Below are positions 7,041 to 64,000 of a DNA stretch of 64,000 bases, piece after piece. The notes under the pieces were generated by a model. It saw only the letters and a program-made list of their open reading frames with translations. It searched no databases and was not told the DNA's origin. The stretch's first letter is position 1. Every line of letters starts with the position of its first letter. A program made the translations under genes and the position numbers. Source of the DNA: Yuukianura sp. NJ FZ-2021 (taxonomy: Eukaryota); NCBI GenBank assembly GCA_046563655.1, contig CM102290.1:2976001-3040000 (forward strand). The letters are read 5' to 3'.

Positions 7041-7182
7041 GCTATTTTCTGAACTTTCGCCACCGCGACATCGAAATATTATCGCAGCATCCTCCAGTGC
7101 CATTCATGTTTTGCCATCCAATATTTTAGTGTGTTCAAACAACTCCTTTCTAATCGCATCTCTTTCAATACGTCTTTGACTA

Positions 7183-7419
7183 CAGTAGAACCTCTCATTT
7201 CGCAACACTCTGTGAGTCACACACTGTGACTGGTGGGTTTGAAGAAAAGTGTTAGCGTCTTCCGCAAGATTTCAAATTCTAACGATCAATTCTGAATTCT
7301 AATTTGGTGTTGTTTACAAATTACAAGTAAAACTCTTCCAAAAATTGCAAGTTTTATGGTATCCCACCCCAGCTTCGGGAGAGGCGGAGCTGAAAGTTTC
7401 GCAACGAGAGGTTCTACTG
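7183..7419. mobile_element. Tc1/mariner (pogo/Tigger-like) MITE, about 237 bp
   Basis: TA|CAGTAGAACCTCTC ... GAGAGGTTCTACTG|TA. It has perfect 14-bp terminal inverted repeats (TIRs), a TA target-site duplication (TSD) and no ORF. Confidence 0.85.
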
Positions 7420-8878: not shown

Positions 8879-11800
8879 ATGACGATACCAATGATGGGAA
8901 ATCTCTCAGCTTTTGGTGACTTTGACAAGGATGGATTCGTCGCCAATTACTTGGGACCGAAACAATTACCGTACGAAAGTCTAATCCCAATGACGATCGT
9001 CTATAGTCTCATCTTTGTTTCCGGCCTCATTGGAAATTTTAGCACTTGTATTGTCATTTACAAGGCCCACTACATGCGAAGTTCAACCAACTACTACTTG
9101 TTCAACCTCGCAATTGCTGATTTCCTGACGCTCATCTTCGGTAAGTCAATTCCAATTTCTTCTTGTTCTTTCTTTTCCAAAGATTTTAAAAAGTTGACCT
9201 CTGGTGACCTCGCTTGAATAAAAGTTAGGAATATTGTGTTTTTGAGAATACTTAAGGTTAGGTTAACAACTTTTTGTTAAGGTGAAGTTTAAGTGTGTGA
9301 GGCTAAATTAAACAAATAGTGCTTTCTCTCAACTTTCCATTATGTTTATAGACTGGAATGCTCCTATGGAAAGGTAAATATAGTTTTGGAAGTTCAAAGG
9401 AAAAATCATTTTCTGAAATCGGAAACATCAAAAGTATGGTTTCAAGCATCGGTTCTGATCGTTTCTTCTTTTGTTCGTTAAGTATTATCTGCCGCATCCA
9501 ACTTAACTTACCAATTACCGTCTCATTTCCTCAGAAATTTCTTTTGTAAAGCTACCAAAAACCAACGTTCTTTTTTGTGTATCAAGACCAATTTCTGTGT
9601 ACGGATCAGAGTTTCTTCGAATTTGGGAAGTGTAGCAGAATGAGTTTGAGTTGATTTTGAAAAGATTTTGTTCCAAGAAATAATCAGTGTGTCTTAGTTA
9701 CATAACAAAACGCCGGAACAAATAATACGTTCGGAGAATTGTCACTTTTCAACAAAATGTTTTACAACATTTTGGTTTCTACAAAACTCAAAATCATTTC
9801 CAGTGTAGCATTTGCTTTGATTTTTGTATATTCCCACATTTTTCAAAATTCAAAATATCCTAAAAAAGATCTAAAAAACTGCAATTTTGCACATAAAATG
9901 ATCATGGTTTTTGACGAGAGTGAAAGTACAGTTCTCAAATTTTCAGAAATGAAGTGATATTTCTTCACTTCCGAATTTTTTATACGTTCAGAACTTAAAT
10001 TGGATACAAATGGAAGCGATTAAGGTTTCCAGCACTTTGACCTTTATAGATCCCTGATATTAAATGGTCTTTAGTACTACCGTGGTTAGTAGCCGTAAAA
10101 CTTACAGTAGCGTAGAGAAACCTATTAAATTTCCAAAATGTTTTCAGGCGAAACAAGTGAACTGGAAATTTGAAAAGGGCAATGCTTTCTCGTTCAATGT
10201 GTTTTCGTAAAATCCATTTTATAGGCTTAACGCTCCTCTAGAATATTGAGTTTGATGGAAACTATTCGTCAACACTAAAATTTCAAAAAACGGGAACAGA
10301 ATTTCAAGGCGTTTAGACCATTTCAGTGTTTTTCCAGCCCATTCATTCTTTTGTGTCTTGGTTTGTTTTGATTCTTGTTGATGAGGAGCACGGATTGTTA
10401 TTGGATTTAAGTTGATTGGAGCGTTCCGTGTACGTGTTCCAAATGCTCGTCCAAATCCGGTTAATTCAAGTGCTTTTGTTTCCGGAAACATTGGTTTGGT
10501 ATGGAAGTTAGTGGTGACGGCTCGTGTTCACCCGGTGCCTCCCAAACACCAAAAATAGCTTCTTTTTTGTTTGGAAATTGGTAAAGATTGATTTAACGGA
10601 AACCTTATTTTCGGTTTTTGGTGGTATGGATTTGGCTATAGTAGAAACGGAAATAGAAAAAGTGAAAGCGACCTTTCCCCCATTTTGTTAATGGTACAAC
10701 CGCCGCCGTGATATTTCTTTTAGCCCAATGTTTCTCATATTTTACACATAACACATAGAGTTTTGGTTCACAAAAACTGCGTTGGGTTGTCCCTATTTCC
10801 TTTTTTTTTTGGTAAAAGTCATAAAACGTAATGCTCTGAGATGGTAACTATTCCCATTAAGGATTTCATAAAGAAAACGGAAGCAGAGCTTTCATTCTTA
10901 CTCTATTCAACTAATAACTAAAGTGAAAAGGCGTGGGAGAAAGGAATAGGCCGCAGTGCAGTTCAACTTATTCATACCCTCTGTAATATTATTACCTACT
11001 AAAAAGATCAATTCCGGGTCAAAGTTCATTTTTCTAACAAAAGTGAAAACAAGCAAAAAATGTTCACTTTAATAAAAAATTCATAATTTGAAGCAACTGT
11101 AATTATTTTCATGTAAAATTTAAAGTCAAACGTCAATTTTTGTGACCTCAATTTGCTCATTTGAGCAGCGTTGAGTTGTCAGGCACAAAAGCAGAAGATT
11201 TAGAAATTCCAAAAAGTAATTCTTTGAGTTTTGGCACAAACTTTGTTCCGGAAAATGTCGTACCGCACTGTTCCATTGACTGACATTACAATTTACTCCT
11301 ATTTTAAGCTTTCTTTTCTTTGGACTTGAGTCTTGGTTAGGTAAGGTTTCTTGGACGTTGTTCAGTTCGAAAGCACCTCAGGGAATACACTGTTCTGGTT
11401 GCCTTAGGACTTAACATTGTGAAGTCGTTGGCATTCCATATGAGAGTTCCCTGCTACAAAGTCAACCTCAGTGACCCGTAGCGTCGTCTCTTTTTCTAAG
11501 TGTCATAATGCAGTGTCATCCAACTTTCAAACAGGATCTCACCAGTCGACCGATTTCGCCTCCAAGCCAAACCCCATTTTTTAAAAAGAATTCAGCAACC
11601 GTTCGTATTCTAAAAGAAAAACTGTTCTTAGAAAAACATAACGATCTCATCGTCTTTTCTGTCTTATGGTTTCGTACGTGTGAAGTCAGCAGTTTGGGCG
11701 TTGCTGACGCCTCAGCAAATTTTTTCTATTTCTATTGTTTTTCTTTTGCCTTACATTCATTACATTGGTTCAGTTCTAGTTGCCTGCTCAGAGCAGGATC

Positions 11801-14800
11801 ATCAGTTTCCTTCAATGAAAAAACAACAACAGCTGGAAATGAGAACTTATCTATCAAAATAATGTCACTTCCATTGGCAAAAAGTGACAGAGATTGAGAT
11901 TAAGTAGAACTAAATGAAGATACTACTAAATATGACGCATGCGTGTTTTCACAACTTCCGTGTTTGTAGGTTATTTGCAGAAGAAAGTTGGAGAAATCAT
12001 TTCTCAAACTCTGCCAAAAAGGAAAAACTTTTCAAAAAAATTTTTTTTTATTACTGTGTTTGTGAAACGTAAAAAATTGGGATTTGTGCGCCTTAAGAAC
12101 TTTCCCTGGAGAGAAATTGATTTTGCTACACCTTAGAAACTAACAGCCTTAACATAACCCTAGGGATTTTCAAAAAAATTAAGTTAGGATTTGAACATAG
12201 TTTGGCACATAGCAACTATCATGCTAGTTTGTGTTATAAGGTTTAGCTCCTAGGAACCTACTATTCAAACTTTCATTGAATTTCACTTTTCTCTTGAAAA
12301 GAAATCGAACAGTAGGACTTGAGATTGATTATTTTTTGAGATTTTTTGGTTAGCTTGAGTTTAAAGTTTTAAAAAGCTTTGAACGTAACGTTTTAGAAGA
12401 AAAATAGAAATTTGATACTTTTTCTTGGTTAGGTTTTTCATTTTTTTTAAAGTGTTGCGATTGGGCGACTTCACTAAAAGCATAATGACTTTTTAACTCA
12501 TTTCGTAAATGTAAATGGATAAAGTGCTATGGGAGAGTTGGCAAAAAGTTGTACAAAACCAAATTTTAGCGGCTTTCTGGATTCTGCATCCGAATGACCT
12601 TGACATTCAAAACCTAACCGACTTTTTTGGGTTCATAAACTACAGCTGCTACAGGTTTTGGGTTTGTACGTGCCGCTTCAAACAGACACAAAACAACCAG
12701 AAAATGCTAAACATACGCGCCATGTTGCAGTTAAAAATTAATTTTGTTTCCAAACAAAACTTTACGGAACTTCATTTTTGAAGTATTTCTGTCCGAAAAC
12801 AAAAATAAGTCTAGTTCTGCTTTATACAATTTCAAAACATTTTCGGCTGTTGAAAAAAAAACGGAAAAATTTAATTTTAAAATGAAGACGGAAACATTAA
12901 ATGTTGAATCATAATTGTTTGTTTACATTTCAAGCAAAAAAGTTATTACTTTTACCCTCATCCTGTTCAACTTTTCTCAAAGAAGTATGAATATAAATAG
13001 AAATTCTTATTATTGTTTTCATTTTTCAATTCTTTCGAATTCACTTTCCTGAATATGTTTTGACACAATTTGTGAGGCTAAATTAATTTATGTTTTGTAA
13101 AAACGGGGTTCCCCGAAATGTTTTGCTGAATTTCTTGGAGAAATGTTCAAAACAAATTTACATCCGGAGCACTATTAACTTTTTATTTGAACAACAAGAT
13201 TCAGTTAACCTCATTTTAATGGAAATTAAGTTAACTTCTATCAACTCACGAAAAAAGCTTTATCAAACCTTGGATTTAACCTCGAGACAAGTTAAAAGTT
13301 AAATATTTGTTTTGCCCGAAACTGTAAAATATTCTTTTTGGAAAAAAGTTTTTTAAAATGTTAAACTTCGAAAATTCTAAAGTTTAGGAAATTTAATATA
13401 ATAACGTAACTGTTTTGGCTTTCTCTTGTGGATCTTAATAATAATGAACCCGAAAATAATTGAGCGTTATTAGTATCCATTAGGCTCATCGTTTAGATTT
13501 TATAGTGTTTTAGTACTTTCTTAAAACATCAGGAAAAGTGCCGCTTTCGTAAAATGGTTCGCTAATCTTACTGCCAGCAGAAAACTTTGAAAGCTCATTT
13601 TACTTTTTTCCTGCAATTCTTCTGAACAAAAAAATTGTGTAGAAGTTCTACAGGTTTATGGTTATGTTAGAGAAGTGGAGGATCTTAATTAATTGTACGA
13701 AGAACAAGGATTAGTGCAGATGTGGGAACTAGAAAAAGAGAGTAGAGGGAGTTGCCCAGTTATGGTGATGCACAAAAGCACTTTTCCTGGTTCCAGGATT
13801 TCAGGAACTGGAGAAAGTCCTCATTAAGTCCTCTCCTTCTGCGTAGCTTTTTCTTGCGTTCCTTTTTTTGGAAAGTGCGCGGGCAAAAGAGAAAAGTCCA
13901 ATTTTCTTCTAGAACTTATTCATTGTCCTCCTCCGTCAAGTAAGCGTCTTATTGGGTAATTTATGATTTCGGAAGCCCCACTTTCTCTTCCGCAACCCTT
14001 CCTTACCACCATTCCACAAAGATCACTGTACTTTTCTTCTGCAACTCCAATTTACACAATAGTTTTTACACCAAAATTTGGAAGATAAATTAACTTTTTG
14101 TAAAGTTGAACTAAAAAGTTAACGAAATTAAAACTTTGGGGACTAATGGTGTAAAGTCGTAGCTAAACCTTCAAAGTTCAGATTTGAGCAGACGTTGAAA
14201 TATGTTTATGTTAGCCACAGTGTGAGATTAATTTTCATACATTTTAACTTTAGCGTTTCGTTTTTAATTCTGGTCCTTTCATTTTGTTTCATTGTCACTT
14301 TCACTGTCACTTTGTGCCCAATTTCACAAAATGCGACTCAACCAAGCCTTTTGTTTTCGAGTTGGATAAAAAAGTGCACTTTTGGATTTAATCTGTTAAA
14401 AGAAAATACAAAAACGAGTGGGAAAAAACACAAAAGGAAAATTAAGCCCAAGAGCACTTGCAGTTTAGTTTTAAAAATTCAAAACCCGCCGCCAGGTTTT
14501 CCGCCTTTTAATTCAAAATTCTGACTCTTCTGTGTACTTTCTCTTTGGTCGGAATTGCATTAGTGGGCGGCGGGTTTACACAATTAAATAAACAACATTT
14601 TCCAAAATGCAGCGTGTGAACTGTAAAGTGAAAGTGCTGCTCAGTTCCCACAGTGTTGCTGCTGGAGAAACTTATGGTTTACCGCAACGTTGTTTCTTTT
14701 GATCAACCTTATGAACAAAATGAGAAATTATCTTAACTGGTTTCCTTTGTTTTGTTTGCTTTTCGTATAACGGTTTATTAAAGTTGACTAACAATAAACA

Positions 14801-17800
14801 CGAAACTTATTAAGTTTTGTAGTTGTAAAACTTAGGCTTAAGCCCATTGTTCTAAACAAATTCAAAATTTCAAGGTTTTGGAGAAAAACAAAAGGAAGAA
14901 GAAACTAAAAGTAGGCTAATCTTATGTCAACCCCATTGTACGTATAATCTGACAGACACAAAATCCATGTACTGCGTAAATCGTAACATGCTCGTATTTT
15001 CCAACAGATAAAAAAAACGTTCCGAAAACGTTTTTTAAAAAAAAACAATAAAAAAAAATACTTGTTTACTGTGACAGTTCAATAAAGAGTGAACGTAGAT
15101 AAGCAAACCATGGCGTCATTGTAAATCCAACTGACTGATATTTACACTTAAGGTTTTGGAAAAAGCAGTTTGAAGTGCACCACAAATCTCAAAAAGAAAA
15201 AGTTTAAAATGAATCTGATTTGAGAAAGTTTGTTCAATTTTGACACAACGCGTGGGTTGGAAATTTGAACGTTTGAGAATTTTTATAAAAGTAACGGCGA
15301 ACATGAATTTCGTTTTTAACTTTTTCTAAAAAGCCCTCAAGAAACAAAGTAGAATAAGTTGAATAGGAACCGATCTTAGCCTAAGCCTCACATGCTGGCA
15401 AAACCAACAGTACTTAGCAAGTTATAACTTTTAAAAAATGTGTTAAAAAAGTTTTAAAAAAAAGAGTTTGGTTTCAAAAAAGTCCACACCAAAGTATATG
15501 CATTGATCTTCAGTAAGATTTCTTTTCTAATCTCATCATTTTTTTTTTAAAAAAAAAAAGGTAGTAATGGATCTTTTTCGGCTTAAACTTTTTCTGTGCT
15601 ACCACTGTTGAAACAAATTCAAACTTTTACTTTGCAGAACTAGATTTTTTCGAACATTTTTGAAACAAAAAAAGAGAGGCAGAAGAGAAAGTTTTTGGAC
15701 AGAAAAGTTTTTTGGAAAGGCGACAGTCTGTAGCTGCTACTTGAGAATGGTGTTGGAGATTCCAAGTATTAGAAAGAACATGTCCATCACTTTCAGTTGC
15801 TCGTTGCTTCACAAATCCTCAGCTGTGCAGCGTATATAAGCTTAGAACTGGGCATTCTGAAAAGATCAGAGTTGGGCATCTCATACCTTTTATCAAGGGA
15901 CAACAAAAGTGCTTATTTTCTTTTTGCATTTTGTGAGATTTGTTGAAGTAGACACGTGGAGAAAGCATAATGCGTTCATCCGGCGTGTAAGTTTACTGTA
16001 AGACTTTCACAAGCGGAAAATTTGAAAGATGTCTATAGAAGCGGAAGAAGAAGAAAGTTTCAGAGCGAGATTAGACAAGTTTCCAATTAATCTTGGAACT
16101 GTTTGTTGTTTGTGTCGTATGGAGGAGCGCATCGAATCATAAGTAGGGCGACTACACACTTTCCAAGTTTTCAAAAAGTTGCAAAATTCTATGTTTCAAA
16201 AAAGTTCTAATCTTGATTCTACCTGACTCGGTCTACTGGGGAATAGAAATTCGTTTAAATTTTTAATCGCAATTTTGTTCGATTTCGAAAATGAATACCT
16301 CCGGAACTCAAATTCCATGTTTTGTACTTGTGCGTTGCAATTTTGAAATTGGAAAAGTGTGTTATGGTTTTCGGTTGTGGTTTTTTGGAAGGCACATAAA
16401 TAGTGTAGGCGGGATAGGACAATGACACATTCTATTAAAGTGTGTTATGTCACTGTTCCTTGACACTTGGGAAGAACCAGGGCGTGGTTTTTGTGTTTTG
16501 GCCAATATTTTCCCCCTTGGTTTCCGGTATACAACGACTTTTTTGAAAATAAGAAAATACTTTTAGGGAAAGTGACACCAAATTGTCTGAAGGACTTTAC
16601 TTATGTAATGTGACAGTTGAAATAGTCATGTTACAATCTCTAAAATTTTTAGAGAAATATCAATTAAAACGTAGTGTTACAAGTGAAATGATATTGCGAC
16701 AGTCGTTTTTTTTTGTAAGGCTATTTTCCTAAGGTTTCAGACTAACTTTTTCAAAAGAAAGTGACCTGTCACCACATCCACATTCTAGAATTCCCTCCTG
16801 TGGTTTTCACCATTGAAACTCTAAAAGAACTAAACCGTGTAACTGTGGCTCGTGTGACTCGTAATTAATTGCAACAAGTTCAAGGTCAATCGAAAACTTC
16901 ACTACCCGCAGTATCCCGCTGAGCCTTGTTCCTGTTTGCTCGTAACCTTGGTCTTGTCACGTCCAGACCGTGCAGAGGACTCACCATTAAAGCAAGTTCA
17001 ACCATTTGTGACTCTCCAAACATTTTCGCTCGAAAATAATAAACCGGTTGTAAATCGGAATTTACAAAAGTAGCGAAAGATGGCGCTGCGTAATCGCGAA
17101 TGGCTCTTCATAATGGCCCACCATTTTAATACATAATTGGCCATAGTTGTGAACGTCGAAAAGATAAAAGTTAACCTTTGACCCAAAAGGAGGTCACTTC
17201 GGGTCACATGAAATACACGAAAGTTGTTCGCCTTGATGAAGCTTTTGTAGATGTCATTCTCTATGTTACCGGGCATGAATGCGGTTGACCTTGACCTTTG
17301 ACCCGGAAAGTGTTGACCTACGGGGATGATATTCAACAGTGAACATCCGCGGGTCAATAGGTGTCTACCGGTAAAACAAATCCCTAAATGTTGAGCCGTT
17401 TCTGAGATAATTGCCGGAGACGGCCGGCCGGACGGACAGACAAAAGTAATTGCATAAACTAGCTTTCGCTGCTGCATAACTAACTTGTGTGTGTTTGTGT
17501 GAAGAAACGTGAAAATGCATGGAAAATGTGATTTTGATCCTGATATGTCCCATGTCCATTGAAGCTTTGAGAAGTGAATTATAAAACAAATGAGAAAGTC
17601 TCTGGGGGGTAGATACTTTCACTTCGATATAAACTTTTGTCCTTTGATCTTCTGTCATTCTTTTCTGCCTCTCCTAGTAGACAGAATTTACTAAAAACTT
17701 CAAAAACTGAAAAGTTTCTTAGAAAACGAAGAAAAACCAGCTTATATACAGAAGGAAAAGCAATTTTGAATGAATATTAGGAGGAGTTGCGTGGGAGAAA

Positions 17801-20800
17801 GTCAAAACAAAAAGAGAACAGGGGCCGTAGGCTCATTAATTCATTCGACAGAAGCAAAAATGTTTTTGAGTTTTGAAAATTATTTAAAAAAAGCAGTTTG
17901 AATTGATGGATTTTAATTTTTGTGCGTTGGCAGTTAAGCAAAGTCTATTGTTTTCGAGGGTATAAGAAATACTTGACGCGCAGTTACTATTTCCGCTATT
18001 TGTTTTTTTCGAAAGAAAGCTGAGGCTGTAAAGTTGCATTGAAGATGAAATTGGGTTCTTTAAATGCAATAATGGCTCCGTGTCTTCGATGTCGCAAGTG
18101 GTATAAAAGGCCTCAAGGTCGTAAGAGGGGCAAAAGCAAGTTTAAATTGGCAAAGAAAATGGCGTTAAGAAACTTGTTGGAAGAGGGTTTTCCGGGATGA
18201 AAATTTAAGCGAGGAACGTGAATCCAGAGATGAGGAAAAACGAGGATGGTGAATGCTGGAGAGCGAAGGCCTGGCTTCTTAAAGTTGAAGAAAAGCGTCG
18301 AAATGAGTAACCCGGGAGCGTAAAGTAAAGAAATTCAAAAGAGCGCGGTTGAATTTCCGGACATGAAAAAAAAATAGAAGAAGAGAAGCTGAAAATAAGA
18401 TTCTGAACGAACCGGATGGAAATTTGAAGCAAAGGATTGAAAAGTAGACGTTGTAAAGCACCCCGATCTTCATCTGCCTTACTAATGCTTTCAAATTTTT
18501 ATTTTCGCTTCTTCCAAAAAAAAAAGGATAAGTAAAAAAAAAATCTCCTTTTGTGACGCCTAAGACGCAAAGTTACTAAGCTGGAAAAGTGGAGAAATGG
18601 CGACAGAATTTGGCAGTCATGCCTTTATTTTTCAGAATAAAAAAATTCAGAGTTCATTGTACCTTTCATTTGAATCAAAAAGCCAAAAGCTTAAACATAC
18701 CAAGGGAATGTCCATGTTGGGTTTGTTCCAAAATTTGAAAATATGTGAACCGTTTTTTTTTCGAAGGAACTTCCCCACCTCTATTCTGTCTCCAAATTTG
18801 TCGTTTTCCCGGTAATCCAATTTTCCGAAAAATTATTGTTGCAGCAGTTTTCGGATCAAGTAGGTTTACCCATAGTACCGATTTTGTGGAGTGTTCTTAC
18901 TGTGTTTCTATTCTTTTAGTAAATCTACCAACACAATTTTTTTTGTACTTTTTTGTTGTTGTATTAACTAACGCCTTTGTAACATGAGGAACTCTAACTA
19001 GTAAACATGGTTAAAAACATTACACGAGAAATGTTTTGAAAACGAGTCTATTGATATTTACTTTCAACAGCAATTTTCTTGAAAATTGGAACAAAAGTTT
19101 TGAAGAAATTCAAAACAGATACCAAAAATCGGATTTTTGAAAATCCGAGAACGCGATTTCAGGAAATATTTTTTTCCAGTGCCTAAGAATTGCTTTATGT
19201 TTGATTTTATTTCCACTGAAGTGTGGTGCCTCATCTCTTCTTTGCCTTGTTGTAATCCATACCGCCTATTTTTCTTCTTTGAGTTACCAAAACATCATTT
19301 TCCAAAGAAAAAATTCCATAACAAAGTCGCAGATTTCAAAATCTGAAACCGAAAGATAAGCAGTATCGGATGTTCGCTTTGATTTATTGTCAATTTTGGT
19401 TCTCTTTTGTTGTCTTCAGTGAAAACTTGAACACTGCAAACGACTCAAGATCAAAAGTACAATCTTTTATTACCTTGCTTCTGTATTGAATTACATCTTA
19501 TCCACAAAAATACCACACGACCATTGGCCATGCGACAGTAAAGGTCAAAGGTCATTTGGAAAACTTGTGTTGCCACAGCTACAGCATTGTAATTCCTTTC
19601 AAATTGGCTTGATGTTTTTGTTGTTTTGGCACAAAATCTGACATTCTGTTCTGAAAGATTTTGCAGATATACATGAAGATACTCGTTAGTAAATTCAGAT
19701 GAATTTCTGCATTGTTTTCTTTGTTACAAATTTCAAAACCGAAAGTTTTGATATTCTTGTTTTCTCCGTTCCAAGATTTCCCTCGTGTTTTCTAGTTCTG
19801 GCTCCGGTTGTGGTTTTGTTGAGTTCCGAAATTAACAAAATAACAACACGGCCTCTTTTAGTTTAAACTTGATATAATTCAAAACTAAATTCCAAAAAGC
19901 AACAGAAGCCAAAAAAAGAATTGAACAAGTTTTTTCCAACTAAAGGAAATTTTCTTTGATTTTGTTTTGAAAACACGGAAGATGCAAAGTTTCGTATGGT
20001 AATTAGGTTTTCCGAAGAACCGAAAAAGTCATCAAAGCTAAACTTTCTTTTTCGTTTTTTTTCCAATTTAAGTCCAATCGCAGGAAAAAATCATATTTTT
20101 AACCAAAATAAACCGTTGTAGGCCGAAATGTATAAAAGTAGCGAAAGATTTCAAACGGGTGCGCCCTTACGGCACATCATCATGAGTCATCATAATACCA
20201 CGATAGTTATGAGTTGTAAACATGAAAAAGTTAACGTTTGACCCGGAAGCTGGCCACCAAGTGTTGTATGATGAGCACAAAAGTTGTTTGTCTCGTAGAA
20301 ATGAACTTTTTTAAGTAGTAAAAACAGATACTGGAAATCTGTAGCGGCTTCCCATATAATTACGGCTGACTGCCGGACGAACAGACGGACAGACCTGGCC
20401 TATCCTTAAACTAGCTTTTGCTACTTTATAATGTTGTTTACGTTCAAGTGAAAAAGTTGTAGTTTGTTAAAAGTTCAAATTAAAGTGAAAGTGACAAAAG
20501 CGAGATCTCTGACTTCCGATGGCTATTGTTGGTGTTTTTTCTTGAAAAAGCGAATGTTCAATTTTCTGTTTTCAAACGAACTGAACATCTTTAGAAAAAT
20601 AGTAAACAACGTCCGACAATCACTTTTCTTTTTGATACCGCAAGAGGTCTACTGGAACTGCGCCTGTCGGAACGGAAGTGTAACCCACTTCGTCGGGCTT
20701 CCGTTTTTTTCTGGCCATTTGAAGTTCCGCGGGGTGTTTTTTTTTAGATTTACTGTGAAAGCATAGTTATGATGCACCAAAACACTCTTTGACCTATAAA

Positions 20801-23800: not shown

Positions 23801-26800
23801 AAAATTGTTTTTTCTCCAGTGCGATTCTGGCCAATTTTGTGTTCGGATGAGCTCTAGAAGGGTTTTGTGCGAATTTTTGCAACGTTCGGCCCAGGGTTAG
23901 AACGGAAAGCGCAATCTCATGTTCCACCAAAAACTGAACGCTGGTGTGAGTTGTTCCAGTTCCAGGCTTTTGCCTGCATCTTCACGCTGTGTTTTTGTGA
24001 AGTGGTTTAAGATCCTGGGTGGGATGTTGGATTGGAACTAAACTGTTCCACAGTTGGGCCTCGGAGTCTCACGAAGTGACGCTGAAGCTCCGCGTATACT
24101 AACAAGTACGTTCCAACTCTACGCAAAAATAGACGCCACCAGTTTTGTAATTTAGCGTTTTGGAAACAAAGCAGATCCAACTCAAAGTTTTCCACGTTTT
24201 GTTCAAATCAAAAAGTTAAATAGCGTTCCAGCATTTTTTTTTGGAAAAAAAAATCTGACAGAAATTTTTTCTCTTTGCGTTTTGACCTAAAGTGGCCCGT
24301 GAAGTTTGCGGACAGTGTCGTATTTTAGAAGTTTTAAATATTTTAACTTCATTTTTTTAGCATAACATAACTTGTCATAATTTTCAAAAATGAGTGAAAG
24401 TGATGAGCCGTTTTCATCCCTGATTGGCTTGTTTGAGCCCAGTTCCAGTCTTATTCCTCTGTTGACCTCTGACCTGGACAATGCAACTTTTAATGATTCA
24501 GAACCATACTTTGACGTAGAAGAACATATTCGACTGTACCTAGGGTCCAAGTCTCTACCCTATGAAAATCTTATTCCAATGACTTGTATCTATCTCATCA
24601 TTTTCATAACGGGAGTATTTGGTAACGTGATGACAATGTGTATCATCACGAACAACCATTACATGCATACAGCCACAAACTACTACCTGTTCAACCTAGG
24701 TAATTTCTTTTGACACACGTAAACTTAATTACTAATTGTCACTTTTCACTTTCATTCATTTACTCATCTTTGGATTTCAGCCGTCGCGGACATGACAACT
24801 CTCGTAGTCGGTACGTCAAAAACATTTTCACTTGCAAATGATGACAAAATTTACACATTTCATTGGAAATTTGAGCATATTTGCACATATTTTGTAACAA
24901 AAAAAGGAAAGTTCCGATGTTTAGTTTGTTAACACAGAAATCAAAGGCTGTAATACTGACACTAACTGGAACATTTTGAGTCAACAACTTTCTTTGAAAA
25001 GGAACGGAATTTGGAACAAAACTGTGATAAAATTTCATTAGTTGATGACGCAGACTGTATTACTATGATGACAAAAAAAAGTTGAGCCCTCCAGTTGATT
25101 CTAGAAAAGCATTTGAGAGAATGGGTCCAAGTTTTGTTGCTATTTTGAGTCACTTCAGTTTATTATGTTTATAGCCAGTGTCCAAGTCCTAGTTTCTCTT
25201 TCAAAATTTTAAGAGAAAAAACGACATTCTTTCTTTAGATGACAAAAGATGTGCAGCGAGGCTCGAGAAATAAAAGTGAGAAGATGACTTAGAAGGCATG
25301 TAACAAACAGTATTTTTTTAAAAGAAAGAAAATACAAAGGGATGAGACGAAGGAAAAACGGAAAAATTGGGGGAAATGAAAGGGAAAGTTTTCTTTGGGG
25401 AAAAGGGAAGTGTTTTTGCTTTCTCTTGTGCACTGTTCCCTCGAGAAGTGGCGGCACTAGAGAGGAAGTGTTTTTGGATGTTAGCTTATTGGATTAGGTT
25501 AACGGAGAAAATAGAGTCAGGTTAGTTAGGTTTTGGTTAACCTAATTAATTTTTGGGGGTTGACATTTTATTTCTTAAAAGTAGCGGTGAGAGCAGGTTT
25601 GAAGTAGAAAGCATAGTGCCGAATTTAAAAAAAAACCATAGAAACATAGATTTAAAAAACTTTTACCATTCATTTCAGTTTTGCTTAATGTCAGAAAAAA
25701 AGCGCAGCGGAAGAGGCTCATTTCATTAAACATTTGCTTTTGTTCCTGGAGTGTTTCGAAAGCGCACTTTTTTTTTGCTAATGAGAATCTCACTTGGATT
25801 TGGTTTTTAGATCAACCAACGGAATCTAGTTCAGAAATCTAAATTCTACCGGTTTCAAGCCGGAACCAAATCAAATCAAAAACAGTTTGGCGTCTTTCAG
25901 TAAAGAAATGGTTTGTTTTTTAGTATTTGAAGGTTGTCTGAAAGTTGAAGTGTTGTTAGTATTGGGTATAACTTTGGCTATGTCAGTTTAATAACTAGCG
26001 TCATTTTCAAAACTAAATAGAGGCACGTCATTTTGAAAAGAAGAAAAAACATAACAGTTCCATTGGCTTAATCAGTTACAATCTGACGCACTTCTGGTCT
26101 ACTCAAGTTTATGTTACGTCTATCGACGTAACCAGAATTGTTGGAAATTTAAAACTGCGAGAAAATTCGTTTTTTTTTTGTTTTTGAATCCGGGAATTTG
26201 AAATCCCTAAAGCCAGTCTAGCGTAGCACTTGTAAAAGTAGAAAATAGGAAAATGAGATTTTAGACCTTCTGGATTTACGGCTTTATCTCGCGCTACCAA
26301 AAGCTTTTTTGTGGAGCCATATTAGCGTTATGCTCTTTGTTCATTTTCTCTTTTGGTGAACAAAACACATGATGACTTTTTTCCGTCATCAAAATCGAAT
26401 CAGTCAAAAACACACAGAGGCTTTTTTTGATGACAGTAGACACAATAGAAAAATTTCTTAATAACTTTGTTGAAGATCTTTTTCCTTTTGAAAATGATCT
26501 TGTCAGTGTCATAATTCCTTGTAAAAAACTTAATCCAATTTCCTTTTTTATACACTTATACATGACAAAACAGAAATTCATTTTCTTCAAGTTCTTTTTT
26601 GACAAACTAAATCCAAAAAAGCCTTTTCGGCCAACTTCCCTTTCACTTCGTAATTTTGAGCAACGTTGTACATTCCATTTCATCGTGTAATTAAGCTATG
26701 CTGTATATAACAAAACAACAAAACATTTCTTTGAAAAGATTGTTACTTTTTGTTAAAATTTTCCAATTTTCTTGCGGAAATTCAAGTGTTCCAAAGGGAA

Positions 26801-29800: not shown

Positions 29801-32800
29801 TGCTGCTCAATTTGTTTCAATTGAATAGAAATTAACTCAATTCTCAGAAATGGAATGGAAAAAAATATGAGACTGGTTCTGTTTTTTGAAAAAGAAAGCA
29901 ACAAAGGACTAGGTAATGTTTCAGTTTACGTAATGCTATTGAATTCAATCTGCTTTTCGCTTCTACTGGTTGGTTTCTATTACTTTGTTCTATGAGATCA
30001 ATGCACGATGAAAGTTATGTAATAAGGGCAATGACGCCATTCCTAACTTAATTTGTTGCATGATTTTTTTTTGTTCGAACTCTTCCACTTTTGTTTGAAC
30101 AAATTCTCAGACTACTTTCTCCTCCGTTGTCTCGGGAAAGTTGAAAGCCGATGCTTCCAAATGTTAACATTTTCCTAATTTGAAAAGATCGCCAAAAACA
30201 CCATAATTCCTTGTTTATTTGACAGAACTTTGAACTCGTTTCTCCTTTTCGCGCCAATTTGTACTAACCAGAACCTAAGGACTACTAAATCTCTTTATGG
30301 AAAATGAAATTTGATAATTATGTGTACCGTAAATTTCAAAAGTAGTTCCAGGCCTGTATTAATCAATTTGAGAATGGTAGCAAAAACGATGTGTTTGAGA
30401 AAGAGATAGTTTTGGAAATTTACGGTATTTCCAATTATAGGAAAGTTTGTAACAAAATCTCATCCTGTGTTCAACCGACTATGAAAACTTATGATCAAAA
30501 TTTTGAATTTTGGAGACCAAGTTGAGTCAGCGGTCGTTTGAAATATCATAGTTTGAGATCTTTGCAACGCCTTGACTTTTGGAACTTATGATCCTCCAAC
30601 TTCACTTTTTACCTTGAAAACTAATAGTTTTAGTTTTAAATTCTTTAGGTGCAGAAATGTTTAGATTTCTAATGACTTACAGTTAGATTTGAAACTAACG
30701 AGGAACTTTTGACTTTTGAAGGCCTCTTTGTTTAGTCTTGTTTGCTGAATGTCTTAACTTTGTTTTGTTTGCTTTCTTTTTGAACAAGTATCTTGTTTTA
30801 GAAAAACCAAAGTTAGAAGTTGGAAAAAGAGAAAGTTGTGTTGAGAAAACCTGATTGTCTAAACCTAACAATTCTATTTGAGAAAAGCACAATAGGACTT
30901 TGACGTCTAAAAGAAAATTCCTTTAGATGTTTTCATGTACTCCAAAGTAGGTTCAAGTGTTCTTCCTCCACAAATCCGGTTGAGGACACCGTGATTTCAC
31001 GGTCACGGTTTCACAAATTTCCGTTTCCTTCCTTCTCTGAAGAAGGAGTGAAAACGTCTTTGAAATTTGGAAACGAAAACGATTTGTACTTTTCAAATTT
31101 AAACTCTCCGTCATCATAATCTTACTTATGCACGCAACTATTTCTGACAACTTAACAAACGGCTCTGAGACATTTCCACATCAGTCTTGTTTCAAGTGGC
31201 AGAGGCTTTGGCGTTCGGAACTTTTTTTTTCATATTTTTAAATTGGTCACAATTTTTGAAAATGTCTCACCAAAAAAAAATCCATGAGAGTTGACTTATT
31301 TGTCCAATTTTGACTTCATTTTTCTTCCGTCATCACACACCAGGTTCTATTTACTCAAGAACTAAAGAAAAACGACTGGACTTTTTTATACACAAAGTCA
31401 ACCAATTTTTCACTTTTGAGCAAACGACAAAATCGCAAGTGAAAGTGAAAGTCCTTGAGGACACGAGCAGGAAAAAACTCTTCAAAAATACTAAACTGTC
31501 CAAAAAATACGTGTGCCTAAAGTCATATTTTTTGAGGGGACTTAAGGGCCTAAACACCATAAAAATTGAACTTACAAGAGTACCAGTTTGGCTCAATAAA
31601 TTGATGAGTTTTCGAAGGTGTAACAAATTGAATTTGTGTCTGTTTGACTGAGCAGAGTTAAATTTTATACGAGTATGCTTTCACCATACCGGGCTACAAA
31701 AAAAAAAAAACTCGTGTTTTCAAAAAAAGCAACATCAAAAATTGATTTAACCTTTACCATGCACGTACACTTCAAGCTAATAGTTTGAAAATCCTCGTTT
31801 TTTTTTATTCCTTTTTTCAAAAAAATCATTGATCTCAATAAAATGTAAACTTGAAGAGAAGGATTTTGCAATGAATATTTGACAGCCTAAAGTGCTTAAA
31901 TCCGCCTCCCTGATCATCATCTTCAGTATCCTGCTTTTCAATTTTCCAACAGAGGACTGTTCAATTCCTGGAAAAGAAGCTTAAGAGGGTCGAAGTCTCT
32001 TTCTTCCAGAATCTCCACAAATCCATTGGATCAAGATCCAAGATCATGATTTCAAGGCGCCAAGACCATGAATTTAACATCCGCATAGTTTTTCCATGTT
32101 TCTGGGTTCTGGTACGAGTAAAATAAAATGGAAATGATTTCTAGTGATCGTGGTGTGGTTAGCTGAGACAGGACGGAAAGGCTTTCTGTGGTTGGGATTT
32201 GACAAAGAGATGAGTTAGTTTCAGTTCCAAGTTCAAAAAAAGTGTGAAAACGTAGTCTAACCTTTCACCATTTGGAGTCCGGTTGGAAAGTGCTTGTGGA
32301 TGCTGAGGTTTTGAGTTCCAAGTTCAAATGCAGGAGAATTGCCGTTGAGGGATCGATTTAGACGTAAGGGGACACATAAATCTTGACCTCATCTGCCCTA
32401 ACCAACTGCTCCACTCTCTCCTGTCAGGACTCTGGAGACCTTAAGGGGTCAAAATGGAATTTGAAAACTTGAGGGACCACTTTCCACATTAAATTCTCTC
32501 TATGGCAGGATAGGCCACTTTCACTACCATCCTCTTATCACTTCTACAACGATTACATAACGGGTCGTCGCCCTGTGACCCCCAAAACCTTGTAATTTGC
32601 TCTAAAATTTTGAATTTTTAGTTTGTATTTGGCTTTTTCACCTCCTGTGAGTCATAAAAACTAAAAATATTTTCAAATTTTGTCCAAATTTTGAATCTAA
32701 AAGTCAATTCTGACTGAAGTTGACAGTTTTTTGTTAGTTTAAGTTTAACTGCCTTGTATAAATATTTTTTTAACTATCAGCAAAATTTCGGACGAAATCC

Positions 32801-35800
32801 TTTGCGAAAAAAAAACTTCTTTTTGAAATTGTATAACCATTGAAGTTTGAGTGAAGTTTGAGTTCATTTGAATATTTTTTTGAAGTTTGAAACAAAAACA
32901 CATTTGGCTTTTGCTGTAGTTTTTCTTTGAAAAAGTCTCGTTTCTGCAATTTGGAAAAATGGAGTTTATAAATTATGTGGGAAGAAGTAGAGTCCGAGCT
33001 CTGGGGAAATCTGAAGACGGATTCCTGCAGGAGCAGTTTTAGGCTAAATATGGTAGATTAGGATAGACAACGTTTGGGTAACAAACTAACTTTCTACCCC
33101 ATTTAGAAAGTGTTGACTTTGCACTTTTTTTGAAAGAAAAAACAAAGAAGACGATGATGGCCTAAGTGTGATGCCCTAAACCTGAAAGTTAATTTGGAAG
33201 CCAAGTGAGGCCTGAGTAGGCGGGACGTGATTCTTCATTAGCAATTCAGAACAGAATCCGGAACATAAATGGTTCGAGTGTACACCATGTACATACACAT
33301 GTAAGGTCCATATTTGTCTGCCCTAAGCTTTAAAACCTCTGCTCTCGGTAGTAACGATGACACTAGTTTTGCTCTCAGTTTTGGCACGAAGAACCTATGA
33401 CAGGAGCCAAAATCACAGGATTTGTTACCCCTGCGCTGTCTAATTAGAATTTCTTTGTATGCCGTCAACCCATGGTGCTGCTAAAATTGTAAAGAAAGTT
33501 TCAAGTTTTAAGAAAGTTAAAAACAAAGTAATTACAAAAGTTTTGTCATATTCTATATTTTTATGTTACAAATATTTTGTTGCTGAAGCATCCGACACAT
33601 TTTCGAAAATGAAATTTTGAGATTTTTTTAACTCAAGTTGAAAATATTCCCACAACTGGAGATGTTTGGAGCTGAATTTTGGAAAACCAAAATACAGTGT
33701 TTTGATGTTTGTGGTGAGATGAGAAAAGAGAAAGTTTTTGAAATGTTGTATCCGAAATTAAATCCAGGTTTAATTTCAAAACCTAATTAAGTTTCCAAAG
33801 TGAAAACAAGCTACGGAACTTGAGAAAGACCATGTTTTGTGGTTATGCCTTTGGTTTTGTTTTCAAACACAGTGATCAAGTTGCACATATATTTTGTACA
33901 CTGTGGTTTCAATGTTTTGAACATAACTTTTGCCCTAGTTTTACATTGTAAAGAGCATAAACATACCATTACTGTGAAGCTCAAAATTGGTTTCAAAATT
34001 TTCCAACGCAATTTTTTTTTTGAAAATTACGGAGAAACCAGACTTCGTCAGATAAACTTCTCATACACTCTGTAGTAGTTTATGTAAATTTTCCATTTGA
34101 AACTTTGTTGCAGCTCATGTCAACGACAGTGGGCTTAACTGTATCCAAAATGGCTCCTTTGCAGTCGACGCAAGGATTGGGGCTACTGGGTCATTTGGTG
34201 TCCTGAGATTTAAATTGAACCGAGCGAATAAGAAACTGAAAAAAGCGTAGCGTTGTTCCAGTCCTGGAAAGGGACGTTCCAGTGCTGATGCTGATCGCTT
34301 GGAAACGTGATGCAGATGAAGCGAAAGTCCCAAAGCGACAGTTTGGGAATAAGATCCGAAGCGTTTTCTTAAAGACAAGAACGAGAGGCTGGGATGTGAT
34401 GTTGGAAAGTCACCCATTTCCTTTAGCGTTGAGACCCTCTCTACGTACTTACCATTATTTCACGTTCTCCATGTTCTTTTTCAAATTCTAGTCGGCGGGC
34501 GTGCGATCGTTTGAAATTTGAAAATGGTACTAACACTTTAGCCAGCTAAGTCAAAATCCTCGTTACACTCCGCACAAACCCAAAATTACGATTTGTTTTT
34601 ATCCTTTCGGAGAACCAAAAGCCGCGTCTCCAAAAAACAGATTGGAAACGGTTTTTTTAATCGAGCGCCTAATAAATTGGGTGTAATTTACTGTGCCTAA
34701 TTCGCTTGAAGTTGAACCTGAATTTTCAAATGCCAAGGCATGGGAAAAGTCTGTTCCTGGATTCCATTATTTCCGTTTGTAGCATGTGTGATTCAGGAGG
34801 AAAAAAAGTAGATTTTGGTGGGTTTTTGTTCAATGTTCAAAGTTCCAAGTGTCATTAGGTTTGGAAAGTACCACAGTCTGTGCTGCTCCTCGAGCATTCG
34901 ACGACATCCAGAATAAATTGGAGTTCATGGATTTAGTAAAGATAGTGAACTCGAGGGAACTTGTAAAGGTGTGTCGTCGTTGCCGTTATAGTCTGGAAAG
35001 TGCTTATAGTCTTTTTGAGAAAGACGAAAAAAGTGAAAGTAAAAAAAAAGTTTGGTCATTATTACAGGATATAAAGTAAGGTTTGATGAAGGAAAAACGG
35101 ATAAAAGGAACTGGAAACTTTAGGAAGCAGAGGGGGACATGTCACCGTGTCGCAGTTTTTACTTTGGTGTGCGGTGACATCAAAACTCTAACTGGAGACA
35201 CACGCCACCACACGTCTGGCGTCACTCTGGTAGAAAACAAGGTGTCATTACTGACATCAACGATACTTGTAAAGCTAACGTAAATATCAAATGCCGTGTA
35301 GATGCGACGGTTTCTTAGAAATTGTTGTTGACAATAATTGTAATTATAAGAAAGAAAAAGCGAAAAGTTCAGATTTTGTATAATTTTTCGACATTTTATG
35401 GAAAGGATAAAGGATCTGGCTACCTAGAAAGATTTATAACTTTACGATTTTGAAAATTTTCTCAAAATTTTTCCAATGCCTTTATAATTATGAGTACGAA
35501 TTTAGTTAATTTTGAAAGTTATGAAAAGTTTTTGTGTTCGTGAAAAGTTTATGGTAAACCGCTGCATATGCTACACTAGACACATGAACAAAATTTTGTC
35601 ACTCAGCAGGTGAACAGGAAACATTTCTGAATTCAACTTTTCAAAATTAGAATAGAATTTCGGAAATTTCGAAATTTCAAAATTTTGTGTGGTTTTACGT
35701 CCACAGTAGGATCGGAAACCGTGAACAGGAAAATTGTTCCTAGTTGGTCACATCTAAATTCAGTTTAGTGGAAATTCGTGTGGTGAAAGGCGGAGGAAAG

Positions 35801-38800
35801 CTAGGTTTAGAGCGCAGGTCAACTCTGAGGTCAACATAGAGAAATAAAAGAATTTCGAAAACCTTAAAAATTTAAATTGAATCCTCTTGTTTGAAAATAC
35901 TGAAAACTGAAACTCATTAAGCTACATTTTTTGTGGTTGTGGTATTGCAGCTATGCCGGTGGAACTATTCGTGATGTGGCATCAGTATCCCTGGGTGTTT
36001 GGTGAACTGGGCTGCGATCTTCGTGGAATTCTAACGGAATGTACGACATATGCCTCCATTCTGACTATAGTCGCCTTCACTACAGAACGCTACATTGCCA
36101 TTTGTCATCCAATGAGAACTCAGACCAAGTCCAAGTTCAGTCGAGCCACTCGTGTCATTGTCCTCATCTGGATGATTTCCATTACGAGTGCTCTCCCATG
36201 GGGAGTCTACACTCAGGTAATAAGAACTTAACTAAATTTTTCAAAACTAAGCTTAAAGAGATCACAAAAAGAACATTTGCAAATCTGCAAAGTCCTTGAA
36301 GCTTCTGCCAAGAAAAAGAAACTTTAATTATGCATAACTTCCTGCGTCTCGAGAAAAATTTAAAATTTTATGAAAATTTCTGCACATTGTATAGTCTCTC
36401 TGTTTTTGCTTTTCACTTTCACTTTCCTCCTCCACACGTTTAAGTTTTACGTCGCTTTGTTTTTGTGGCGCAGTTATTCAAAATTTGGCTTTTAATAACT
36501 TTGCAGATCTCTTATCGTACGCGAAACAGTTTTATTGTACAGTTTTAACAGCGCCCAATTTCGCACAAATTACCCAAAATTGAAATAAAACTCTTGGCAT
36601 TCTCTAGTTGAGTAGTCCAGGTTCTGAGAGAAACGTTGAGTTTTCTTAGTAATTAATTTTCAGATTAATTCTCCTGATATTATCTCAACCAAAAATAAAA
36701 CTTGTTTTCCAAAACGAAGACACGCTTTTTGGTTGGGGTGAAACTTTCACCGTGAAAGTTGTAGAAACGGAAATGTGAAATGTAGAGGAAGAAATCGTTT
36801 TATGAGAAAGTTGGAAGAAGATAGAACAGAAACGAAGAATATTTTAGTTAAAAGAGGTTGAAAGCAAATTCGAAGGCATTTTGTTTACATAAGGGCCTTC
36901 CGCTGAGACTTCATGCTGGTTTCCTCTAAAGTTTTTTGAAAGAGGTCAACCGAGAGGTCAAATTTTGAGGTCACGTGGCAAATCGGGACAGTTACTTGAA
37001 TATTCGTAACTAGTATGCTACATGGCAATAACGTAGGAAGTTTTAAAAATGAAATTAAAGTTAGCATAAAAGAAAATGAATCAACAGAAATGAACCCCGC
37101 GGACTGCTAAACTCAAAACCTTTGTCTCCCTGCTTTGTTCCAAAAGGGAAAATGAACTTTCACTTTCATTTTTCTTAGCCTTACATTACGTTCTTAGGTT
37201 CATGTTAGGTTAGGCTCTAACCTCGCGTGGCTTAGAAAATTACGGAAACATTTTCAGGGGGTGGCATCCTCCATTTTCTAGATTTTTGAAAAGTAAAACT
37301 AGAATTTATTGCAACCGGGAAAGTAAGTCTGGAGGTAATTAGAGTTATTTATGCCGCCAAAAACTCCTTCACCCACCCTAAAACCCACGTTGTTAGCGTA
37401 ATTCCTGAAGAGAAAAAAGTTTATTTCAAAACTTTCCTCTCTTTTGGCATTTTTCCATCTCTTTTATAGTTTGTTTTTGTTTGTGCGAGCAGACACGCGC
37501 CAGCATATAGCAGTAGCAGAACTTGTCATTTTAGTAAATTGACATTAGGAATTAAGATGAAGATAAAAAAGCAATTTTGATAAAAGTTGGCTACTGGAAG
37601 TTTAGGAAAAGCAAGGAGAAAGTTGGCTGATCTTTACAAAATCACGTTTCAAATTGAAATGGAGAAAGTCAGAGCAGAAGGAATATGAATCCCTAATGAA
37701 ATGAAAAATTCTACTGAACAGACGACAGTAGTCAAAATTTTATTGTTTCCTCCAAAAGGGAATCGACTAACGAAATCCATGCGTCAACTTCAATCATTTC
37801 AGTTTCTATTATGTTCCAATTCAGTGTTTATTTTGAACCAAAATTTTGGTTAAACGAAAACCCAAATTCACAAAGTAGTTACTCTGACGCTTTTTCGTTT
37901 TTGAGAGGCTACACATACCACTTCCCAAGAGACAAGTTGACTAAAACGTTTGTTCGGGGAACAATGGACATTTCATTTTGAGTAAACCAACGCAAACATG
38001 AAAATTCAGCAGTCAAAAGCCCACATTTCAAAATTTCAAAAAGACGCATTTTGAGAATTAGTTATGACGAAGAGGACGGATGACAGTTTTGTAAGGATTT
38101 ACATCTGAGCCATAAATTAGATTTCCGGTAAAAAGTACACGTCCCTCTGGACAACTTTGTCTGTAGATTGCAGACATGTCAAAAACATTAGAGTACTCAC
38201 CAAGAAAAGTGGAAGTTCGTAAAAGATTAAGCGTTCGGGACTAGTAAAATCTACTTTTCTTCCAACGTTGAAAATCTTTTTGTGGGGGGTTGAAAGAGAC
38301 TTGCAATTTTTTTGATTCAAGAGCATTAGGGTGTGGGTAGAGTCCAGTAGCATCAGCAGGGCTGTTACCCTTTGACCTTACAGGAACTTTCTTGCTGAGA
38401 CCACTTTGGATTTGAAAATAAATCTTGAAAGTTCCTTTTAAGAGCTTCTACTAGGAGAGTCTGACAGGTTGCGTGCCAATCTACCGTACAAGAGAAAGTT
38501 GGATGATGGTGATGAGAACGGCTTTTCGGAACCAGGTTCCTTCAGTTCGAAACTCCTCTACTGTTCTAAGGGTCTTTTTTTTCCAAACATCCTGAACAAG
38601 ATTTTGAGAGTAATCAAAGAAAAGTACTTTCTCTCTTAGTTTTAGTTTTAAGGTAAAGTGTTTAAGTACAATTCTTTTAATGGGCTTCAAATTTTTGACT
38701 AATTTTCCACATTTGCCAAAAACTTTTCAAATTTAGGCGGCTGGTAAACCCTTGACTTTCAACATGTCGATTTCTCAGTTCCACGTTCATTGTCTAAAAC

Positions 38801-63290: not shown

Positions 63291-64000
63291 TTTGCTTCCC
63301 CTGCGTTCCTCTCCACCGCCACGAGAGGATTGCTACCAAATCAACAGACAAAGTTTTAGCAACGAGGAGAAATACTTTTTCGTTTTTAGCGATGGAGAAT
63401 GTGTTCTGGCCAAAGTTTGCAAATTTTTTGCATCATGCCGATGGAGCATTATGCTCTTGTTTTTCATACCCGGTGGAAATTAATTTGCAATAAGACTATT
63501 AACTAGGGAGGCAATTACAAGGGGATCCGCCCAGTGTAATGCCTTTAATAAAAACCAGTTTAGATTTGGATCTCGTCCGTGAGAGGTTCTTATGAACCAC
63601 AAAAACCATTAGCCAAATGAAGATGAAACAAGTTTATAACTACTGGTGTACTGCGTTAATTCCAACTTTAAAAACATAACACGTAAAGGAACTGCAATTC
63701 TGAAAAACAGTTCAAAAAATTAGGTTTACATGTTAGGAAAAGTTTTTTTGTGTAATATCTTATGTAATACCATATTATATCGCTTCACTTCGCAGTAGCT
63801 ACAGAAATTGACACGGCGAAGACTCGGTGTTTTCTTCATTTTTGAGTTTTTAAAATGAAATTTCGAAAAGTAAAAAAACACTTTTAAACTGCACCAAACT
63901 TTCTCCTCTGTTAACTTTTCACAATTTTTGGCCAACTTTTCAAAATATGTTTCAGTGAACGTTTAAGTTTGTTTAGAGTGAAGATTTGTTTTATCCGAAG

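Follow-up and report, generated by a model that had tools for sequence, protein, structure and literature searches.

The insect ETHR gene produces two neuropeptide G protein-coupled receptor (GPCR) subtypes, ETHR-A and ETHR-B, through mutually exclusive alternative coding exons. These alternatives encode the C-terminal half of the receptor, from about transmembrane helix (TM) 4 or 5 on, and are served by one shared promoter. In one study, ETHR-A and ETHR-B are described as distinct splicing variants that are expressed in different neurons (PMC8175484). Several isoforms per gene have also been described for the pyrokinin (PK)/PBAN receptors of Hemiptera and moths. These variants differ at the C-terminal intracellular end (PMC7274154). 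In this study, we analyzed a receptor gene of the same broad family in the springtail Yuukianura sp. NJ FZ-2021. The gene lies in a stretch of 64,000 nucleotides (assembly GCA_046563655.1, contig CM102290.1, positions 2,976,001 to 3,040,000 of the forward strand), referred to here as the window. It is likely to be a single gene with two alternative 5′ modules, A and B, on a shared body, which would give two full seven-transmembrane (7TM) receptors. Unlike the alternatives of ETHR, those of the springtail gene carry the start codon and extend from the N-terminus into the inner part of TM2; nor does the variation of the Hemiptera and moth receptors lie in TM1 or TM2.

An initial annotation of this DNA had proposed the two interchangeable modules and had supposed that such an architecture was undescribed. 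A partial literature search returned no description of an N-terminus/TM1–TM2 swap in PK, CAPA, neuromedin-U (NMU) or other neuropeptide receptors, which is weak evidence, and no paper describing the corresponding isoforms of the springtail Folsomia candida. The supposition thus stands for the literature searched. However, the Folsomia isoforms already exist as database models, so the design is not categorically new.

Two modules and one receptor body

In module A, the start codon is the first ATG in the open frame. The translation contains an NLS sequon, the GN motif of TM1 and LAIAD in TM2, and the exon closes with ...TLIF plus one G at the phase-1 donor G/GTAAGT (a slash marks the splice site). 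Module B starts at an ATG at 24390, with an in-frame TAA 4 codons upstream. Its N-terminus is longer than that of module A and holds two sequons (NAT and NDS), followed by the TM1 GN motif and LAVAD in TM2. Module B ends with ...TLVV plus one G at the phase-1 donor G/GTACGT at 24810, at the same residue as module A. It is cut by an 81-nt intron (24700–24780) that was absent from the initial annotation; this intron follows FNL plus one G at a phase-1 donor (G/GTAATT), is bounded by GT..AG and contains in-frame stops. The two modules align without gaps, with 58% identity across a core of 64 residues, and a tblastn search with A matched B at E = 6.6e-20. The gapless alignment that had been claimed was therefore recovered, as were the separate ATGs, the sequons and the GN and LAxAD motifs, all of which can be read in the translations. 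The same was true, in the DNA, of the common phase-1 end at one codon (9140 and 24810) that fits a single acceptor at 35951.

The acceptor, TTGCAG/CT, completes a GCT (Ala) codon with either module and keeps the frame open. The predicted joints to exon 2 read ...CTCATCTTCG/CTATGCCG for module A and ...CTCGTAGTCG/CTATGCCG for module B. When modules A and B and exon 2 were used as tblastn queries against the window, two modules and one exon 2 were found, with the next best matches at E values of at least 0.18; the A and B queries detected no third module in the 64 kb. The window thus holds two homologous modules on the same strand, with the same end phase, upstream of one acceptor and one body. 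Either module would bring the start codon, the N-terminal ectodomain, TM1, intracellular loop (ICL) 1 and the inner two thirds of TM2. Splicing of A or B to the same exon 2 would then yield receptors that are identical from TM2 residue 2.57 on.

The shared exons were located by tblastn with two full-length relatives, and their boundaries were set by splice-site inspection. Joined together, exons 2–6 form a continuous frame of 492 residues with ERY, CWAP and NPILY. The full-length relatives and exon 2, the latter a search that the initial annotation had recommended and that was here run over the whole window, both pointed to a single set of TM3–TM7 exons, as it had reported. The coding exons match the Pfam 7tm_1 profile (PF00001) in order: module A covers profile positions 1–35 (28.1 bits alone, against a cut-off of 30.5), exon 2 positions 38–124 (71.3 bits, E = 1.2e-19), exon 3 positions 131–189 and exon 4 positions 207–243. 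Since module A and exons 2, 3 and 4 cover the profile collinearly and without overlap, a complete receptor requires both a module and the body, and neither part is a receptor alone. Part 1 of module B, scored alone, had no 7tm_1 match at E <= 0.01. GN and LAxAD in both modules, together with ERY, CWAP and NPILY in the body, complete the set of N1.50, D2.50, E/DRY, CWxP and NPxxY motifs, which we take to be the hallmarks of rhodopsin-class receptors. The window has a G+C content of 36% and contains no N; a sequence gap, raised earlier as a possible source of error, is thus absent.

A receptor of the neuromedin-U/pyrokinin/CAPA family

Exon 2 has its best matches in the springtails Orchesella dallaii (82%) and Folsomia candida (80%), followed by a millipede, a sea spider and a tick. 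The source databases name these relatives pyrokinin-1 receptor-like, capa receptor or neuromedin-U receptor, and two of them (P0001 and P0002) carry a precomputed PF00001 match. Among solved structures, the Folsomia orthologue was most similar to human NMUR2 (6.9e-54) and NMUR1 (1.1e-53), with neurotensin and ghrelin receptors behind; the human receptors (PDB 7w53, 7xk8 and 7w55) are thus the best solved relatives, at an E value of about 1e-53. The closest characterized relatives are therefore NMU, PK or CAPA receptors. A tree of the body, built from TM2 residue 2.57 to helix 8, grouped the springtail gene with millipede, tick and other sequences (support 94/97). Drosophila PK1-R, the Bombyx diapause-hormone receptor (DH-R) and a "capa receptor" of Orchesella cincta formed a separate clade (100/98), in agreement with a tree of the module region. 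The possibility that the gene is an orthologue of the insect pyrokinin-1 receptor (Drosophila CG9918 type) was ruled out by its position outside this PK1-R/DH-R clade; the trees were built without reference CAPA-R, PK2-R and ETHR sequences. Because of the NMUR structures as best solved relatives and the tree placement, the gene is predicted to encode a rhodopsin-class receptor of the neuromedin-U/pyrokinin/CAPA family that is not the insect PK1-R orthologue. We know of no alternative TM1/TM2 modules in the vertebrate receptors NMUR1 and NMUR2.

Conservation and age of the modules

The "pyrokinin-1 receptor-like" gene of Folsomia candida shows the same design as the gene in the window. Three computed RefSeq models are available for it: isoforms X1 and X2 (XP_035705428/29) carry a B-type module (GVFGNVTT...), and isoform X3 (XP_035705430) carries an A-type module. 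From AMPMELGIMW onwards, the bodies of isoforms X1 and X3 are 100% identical over 578 residues, and the residue at which the modules switch is the same as in the window. The modules of the two species are orthologous. Between the window and Folsomia, the cores are 81% identical for A (X3 module) and 66% identical for B (X1 module), whereas A and B are 56–58% identical within or across species. Isoforms X1 (P0102) and X2 (P0002) have identical modules and bodies of 578 and 577 residues. By eye, they differ in the C-terminal tail (...LYPQEGPNP and ...LYPQGPNP), as the use of adjacent acceptors predicts.

In a tree of the module region with 31 rows, all 13 A-type sequences formed one clade (support 98/95) and all four B-type sequences another (99/95); an earlier tree of 19 rows gave the same split. 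The window, Folsomia and Orchesella dallaii are represented in both sets; the A-type set also includes two metagenome contigs, Orchesella cincta and seven further contigs, and the B-type set one JGI contig. Module B was grouped weakly with a millipede sequence (91/84). Judged from these trees, the module duplication is old and would precede the divergence of the sampled springtail lineages. This agrees with the earlier proposal of an old duplication with both copies kept: A and B fall into separate clades across springtails, and orthologues are closer to each other than A is to B.

Module A can also be followed in DNA. A metagenome scan with the A-type module alignment retrieved two genomic springtail contigs, with protein identities of 90% (L001) and 79% (L002). 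The module occupies one uninterrupted exon in each of them, which closes with ...LIF plus G/GTAAG, the donor being GTAAGT in L001 and GTAAGA in L002. Module A is the first coding exon in L001, because an in-frame stop lies 10 codons upstream of its ATG. When positions 7000–11000 of the window were compared with L001 and L002 by blastn, only 8894–9149 and 8969–9145 aligned, that is, the exon alone. Over 64 codons, module A and L001 differ at 29 synonymous and 4 non-synonymous positions by the Nei-Gojobori method (pS 0.70, pN 0.027), which gives a ratio of non-synonymous to synonymous change (dN/dS) of about 0.013. Two comparisons with L002 gave about 0.07, and since synonymous sites are saturated, all of these ratios are rough. 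Module A is under strong purifying selection, and neutrality is excluded. The initial annotation had called for an estimate of dN/dS; the answer for module A is a value of 0.01–0.07, with similarity confined to the exon. The A-type frames are open in 13 of 13 sequences, 11 of which run unbroken to the conserved ...LIF end while two are cut by an intron. The four B-type frames are likewise open, and at the protein level the B-type modules are 66–75% identical to that of the window. Selection has thus kept both modules, as indicated by dN/dS for A and by protein conservation for B.

The searches also delimit what has been recovered so far. Module B and exon 2 were not found in L001 or L002 within the 2.6–3 kb downstream of module A. 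A spliced product of module A and the body was not present among nine A-type sequences (P0109–P0115, P0123 and P0012), which are read-through open reading frames (ORFs) or short models. In a search of a representative library with module A, 13 of the best 150 matches were examined, and all were 89–152 aa long. A homology search with module B gave three weak matches and, owing to a word-index limit, missed known B-type proteins. A remoter relative of the module (52% identity) was seen in a marine metagenome contig (L003, positions 259–468), where a GT marks its end at a comparable point of TM2.

Species differ in where the small intron within the module lies and in whether they have it at all. 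It is found in phase 1 after FNL plus G in module B of the window and in the A-type ORF P0115, in phase 0 after FNLA in P0012, and in phase 1 after LAIS plus G in the Folsomia-type ORF P0114. It is missing from module A of the window, from L001 and L002 and from the B-type sequence P0120. The split module is apparently A in Folsomia (near LAIS/D in the read-through ORF P0114) but B in the window. This variation points to repeated losses of an old intron or to intron sliding.

Two genes in Orchesella

The arrangement with one body does not hold in every springtail. Both an A-type protein (CAL8081340.1, 874 aa) and a B-type protein (CAL8081332.1, 852 aa) of Orchesella dallaii are full-length. 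Their bodies differ, with 48% identity overall, and Orchesella therefore has two genes, each with its own body. These paralogues carry the same two module types on closely related bodies, but they are separate genes and not isoforms. In the body tree, the two Orchesella dallaii bodies were sister to each other (99/96) inside the springtail clade (97/99). A topology that unites the A-gene body with those of the window and Folsomia was rejected by an approximately unbiased (AU) test (p = 0.0098); this grouping was chosen after the tree had been seen.

Because the Orchesella bodies are sisters, the modules would have split before the lineages diverged and the bodies within the Orchesella lineage. 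The module duplication thus looks older than the gene duplication. An old gene with two modules and one body would later have been duplicated in the Orchesella lineage, and each copy is now modelled with one module type. An ancestral two-module gene that later became two Orchesella genes is the simplest reading of the trees. Gene conversion between two old Orchesella genes is an alternative that would yield the same body tree. The converse derivation, in which the body in the window would derive from an Orchesella-type "A gene" or "B gene" that has since been lost, was rejected, as the Orchesella bodies are sisters; gene conversion remains a caveat here too.

What differs between the predicted isoforms

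Numbering anchored on D2.50 of LAxAD places the swap point directly after residue 2.56 and before 2.57. The peptide contacts of human NMUR2 include 1.31, 2.61, 2.64 and 2.65, while Y1.39 supports E2.61 and T2.39 touches Gq (PMC9019041). The residues Y1.39, T2.39, D2.50 and E2.61 of human NMUR1 and NMUR2 are also present in the springtail protein. Positions 2.57–2.65 are encoded by the shared exon 2, and the two module types have Y1.39 and T2.39 in common. The initial annotation had expected the swap to exchange the wall of the binding pocket in TM2. This expectation did not hold, since the contact positions 2.61, 2.64 and 2.65 (PMC9019041) all sit in the shared exon. Its second expectation, a difference in ICL1, was confirmed by residues that are fixed within each type and cluster in this loop. 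The A-type loop reads K-A-H-Y-M-R-S/T-S and the B-type loop N/T-N-x-Y/W-M-H/Q-T-A; outgroups have K/R-N-Q-Y-M-Q-S/T-A. More fixed differences between A and B were found at positions 1.51, 2.52 and 2.56, and the N-termini are unlike in length and sequons.

The main differences to be expected are therefore in the expression pattern of the isoforms and in whatever ICL1, the inner parts of TM1 and TM2 and the N-terminus determine. The module may affect coupling, regulation, trafficking and the access of the N-terminal part of the peptide, whereas the deep binding pocket would not depend on it. From the distribution of the fixed residues, the isoform difference may thus lie in expression, in intracellular and regulatory properties and in peptide access, rather than in the deep pocket. 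In springtails, a single capa/pk gene with splice variants encodes PVK, tryptoPK and PK peptides (PMC4770511). A ligand-related role for the receptor isoforms is attractive because this gene gives three kinds of peptide and is itself alternatively spliced. A wider proposal, which we regard as possible but doubtful, is that the locus gives two functionally distinct receptors, that this pair predates the divergence of the sampled springtails, and that the module sets coupling and regulation and perhaps the preference for PVK, tryptoPK or PK, with the two isoforms later becoming two genes in Orchesella. If this were true, Orchesella would offer a natural experiment, since its two genes would be the later, separated counterparts of the two isoforms.

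The position of the swap gives the locus a wider interest. The reported isoforms of class A neuropeptide receptors usually vary in their C-terminal tail or, as with ETHR, in their C-terminal half. A conserved swap of the N-terminus, TM1, ICL1 and inner TM2, with the outer-pocket residues identical from 2.57 on, would be a clean natural chimera. What share does this part have in signalling, regulation and ligand access of a peptide GPCR? The chimera would allow this to be asked directly. That alternative splicing and gene duplication can be interchangeable is a general idea, of which two genes in Orchesella and one two-module gene in the window and the Folsomia models would be a concrete case. 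There is also a consequence for annotation, since module A is listed as a short stand-alone "neuromedin-U receptor" in Folsomia and Orchesella cincta.

Module choice and alternative explanations

We infer that both junctions are used, which is supported by the Folsomia RefSeq isoform models and by the conservation of both modules. Two promoters are the most likely basis of the choice between the modules, because each module opens the coding sequence with its own ATG and the Pfam-matched frames of the upstream EF-hand gene stop at 7037, which leaves about 1.8 kb in front of module A. Promoter A would probably lie in this gap, and the second promoter would sit upstream of 24390. Alternatively, a single promoter with an upstream non-coding exon could serve both modules, and mutually exclusive splicing would give the same two products. 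AG sites preceded by pyrimidines lie near 8775–8777 and 24358–24360, shortly upstream of the two ATGs, so either module could be an internal exon, although these sites were picked by eye and are unscored. A transcript that contained both modules would lose the frame, and exclusivity would thus be enforced. On the other hand, a leader exon of this kind was not detected, the Pfam matches of the EF-hand gene, which has the same orientation, reach to 7037 and leave only about 1.8 kb, and the DNA upstream of module A shows no conservation with L001 or L002. Splicing from a shared leader is accordingly rather unlikely.

Several observations weigh against one gene with two alternative front ends. A search of sequencing runs for 8760–9140 returned no RNA run (five runs, all DNA). 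The Folsomia isoforms, including the first junction of X3, are computed RefSeq models. The depositors' annotations OXA58656.1 (Folsomia, 126 aa) and ODN01361.1 (Orchesella cincta, 152 aa) consist of module A without a body, entered as a short stand-alone gene under the name "neuromedin-U receptor". Orchesella dallaii shows that each module type can own a body, and the count of one body covers the 64-kb window, so that a second body could lie elsewhere in the genome. Cross-species DNA comparisons cover A, and the conservation of module B is at the protein level only. Finally, the two promoters and the functional difference between the isoforms are what we infer rather than observe. Some of these points would fit a locus that makes the B isoform alone, with module A as an unused relic of a lost tandem paralogue or as a separate truncated gene: only DNA runs were retrieved, the depositors of two species kept module A as a short gene, and the A-type module of Orchesella dallaii is part of a gene of its own. 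A relic is difficult to reconcile with a dN/dS of 0.013–0.07 (even with saturated synonymous sites) next to flanks that cannot be aligned, with open frames in all 13 A-type sequences and with a phase-1 donor kept in the DNA of the window, L001 and L002. Nor would a truncated gene work as a receptor by itself, as module A alone spans 7tm_1 positions 1–35, and the RefSeq model X3 links the A-type module to the body. That module A is unused is, on this balance, improbable.

The picture of one body could also be an artefact, in which two tandem genes as in Orchesella are present and one body has been collapsed, misplaced or left outside the window. Apart from the two bodies of Orchesella dallaii, this idea draws on the fact that no single DNA contig bridges 8700–28600 and that the read check was confined to this interval, upstream of the body exons. 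Yet the window contains no N, and the DNA contigs of two studies (runs X1 and X4) each cover all 30 bins of this interval, although no listed piece bridges it. Joints in these runs at the 16.7–18.0 kb repeat had sides of 36 letters or fewer and were disregarded; among the 40 of 392 differences that were listed for the two runs, none lay inside exons. Moreover, the donor of module A must be joined to an acceptor further downstream on its own strand, and the interval between A and B offers none with the potential to code for a receptor. The independent assembly and annotation of Folsomia give the same arrangement. An assembly artefact is very improbable, and a single gene with two alternative 5′ modules on a shared body is the reading that we prefer.

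Features of the window

The exons of the receptor gene and the neighboring genes are listed in Table 1.

Table 1. Receptor exons and neighboring genes in the window (positions count from the first letter of the window).
Feature	Position	Strand	Content and basis
Exon 1A, module A	8879..9140	+	start codon, short N-terminus, TM1, ICL1, TM2 to residue 2.56
Exon 1B part 1, module B	24390..24699	+	start codon, N-terminus, TM1, ICL1, TM2 up to FNL
Exon 1B part 2, module B	24781..24810	+	30 nt; rest of TM2 to residue 2.56
Shared exon 2	35951..36216	+	outer TM2 (AMPVELF), extracellular loop (ECL) 1, TM3 with ERY, ICL2, TM4; single acceptor TTGCAG
Shared exon 3	41358..41778	+	ECL2, TM5, ICL3; tblastn and splice-site inspection
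Shared exon 4	45097..45231	+	TM6 (CWAP), ECL3; tblastn and splice-site inspection
Shared exon 5	45658..45969	+	TM7 (NPILY), helix 8, start of C-terminal tail; frame continuous in joined translation
Shared exon 6	47788 to at least 48128	+	C-terminal tail with conserved motif; 48128 is a lower bound for the coding end
Signal peptidase subunit SPC22	1225-1590	-	Pfam; upstream neighbor
SIKE-family protein	3530-3868	+	Pfam; upstream neighbor
Multi-EF-hand protein	5999-7037	+	Pfam-matched frames; upstream neighbor
TRIM-NHL type protein	about 53400-63330	-	RING, B-box, filamin and NHL-repeat exons; downstream neighbor

A Pfam scan of eight long intronic frames gave no match (0 of 8), and no nested gene was recognized. 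The intron between modules A and B contains a high-copy repeat at about 16700–18000, with many short-sided joints. The contig word depth at this repeat is 11191 in run X1 and 186 in run X4, and elsewhere it is about 200 and 5. A frame of 206 aa on the minus strand of the repeat (17001–17618) had no Pfam match. Three tandem repeats were also observed. The first, at 40612–40807 in the intron between exons 2 and 3, has a 19-nt unit in 10.3 copies with 98% match. The largest, at 49591–51183, lies between the receptor and TRIM-NHL genes and consists of about 107 copies of a 15-nt unit (ATCCAGAAAAGTCTG) with 79% match; it produces long repetitive open frames on both strands. The third, at 51458–51655, has a 43-nt unit in 4.6 copies.

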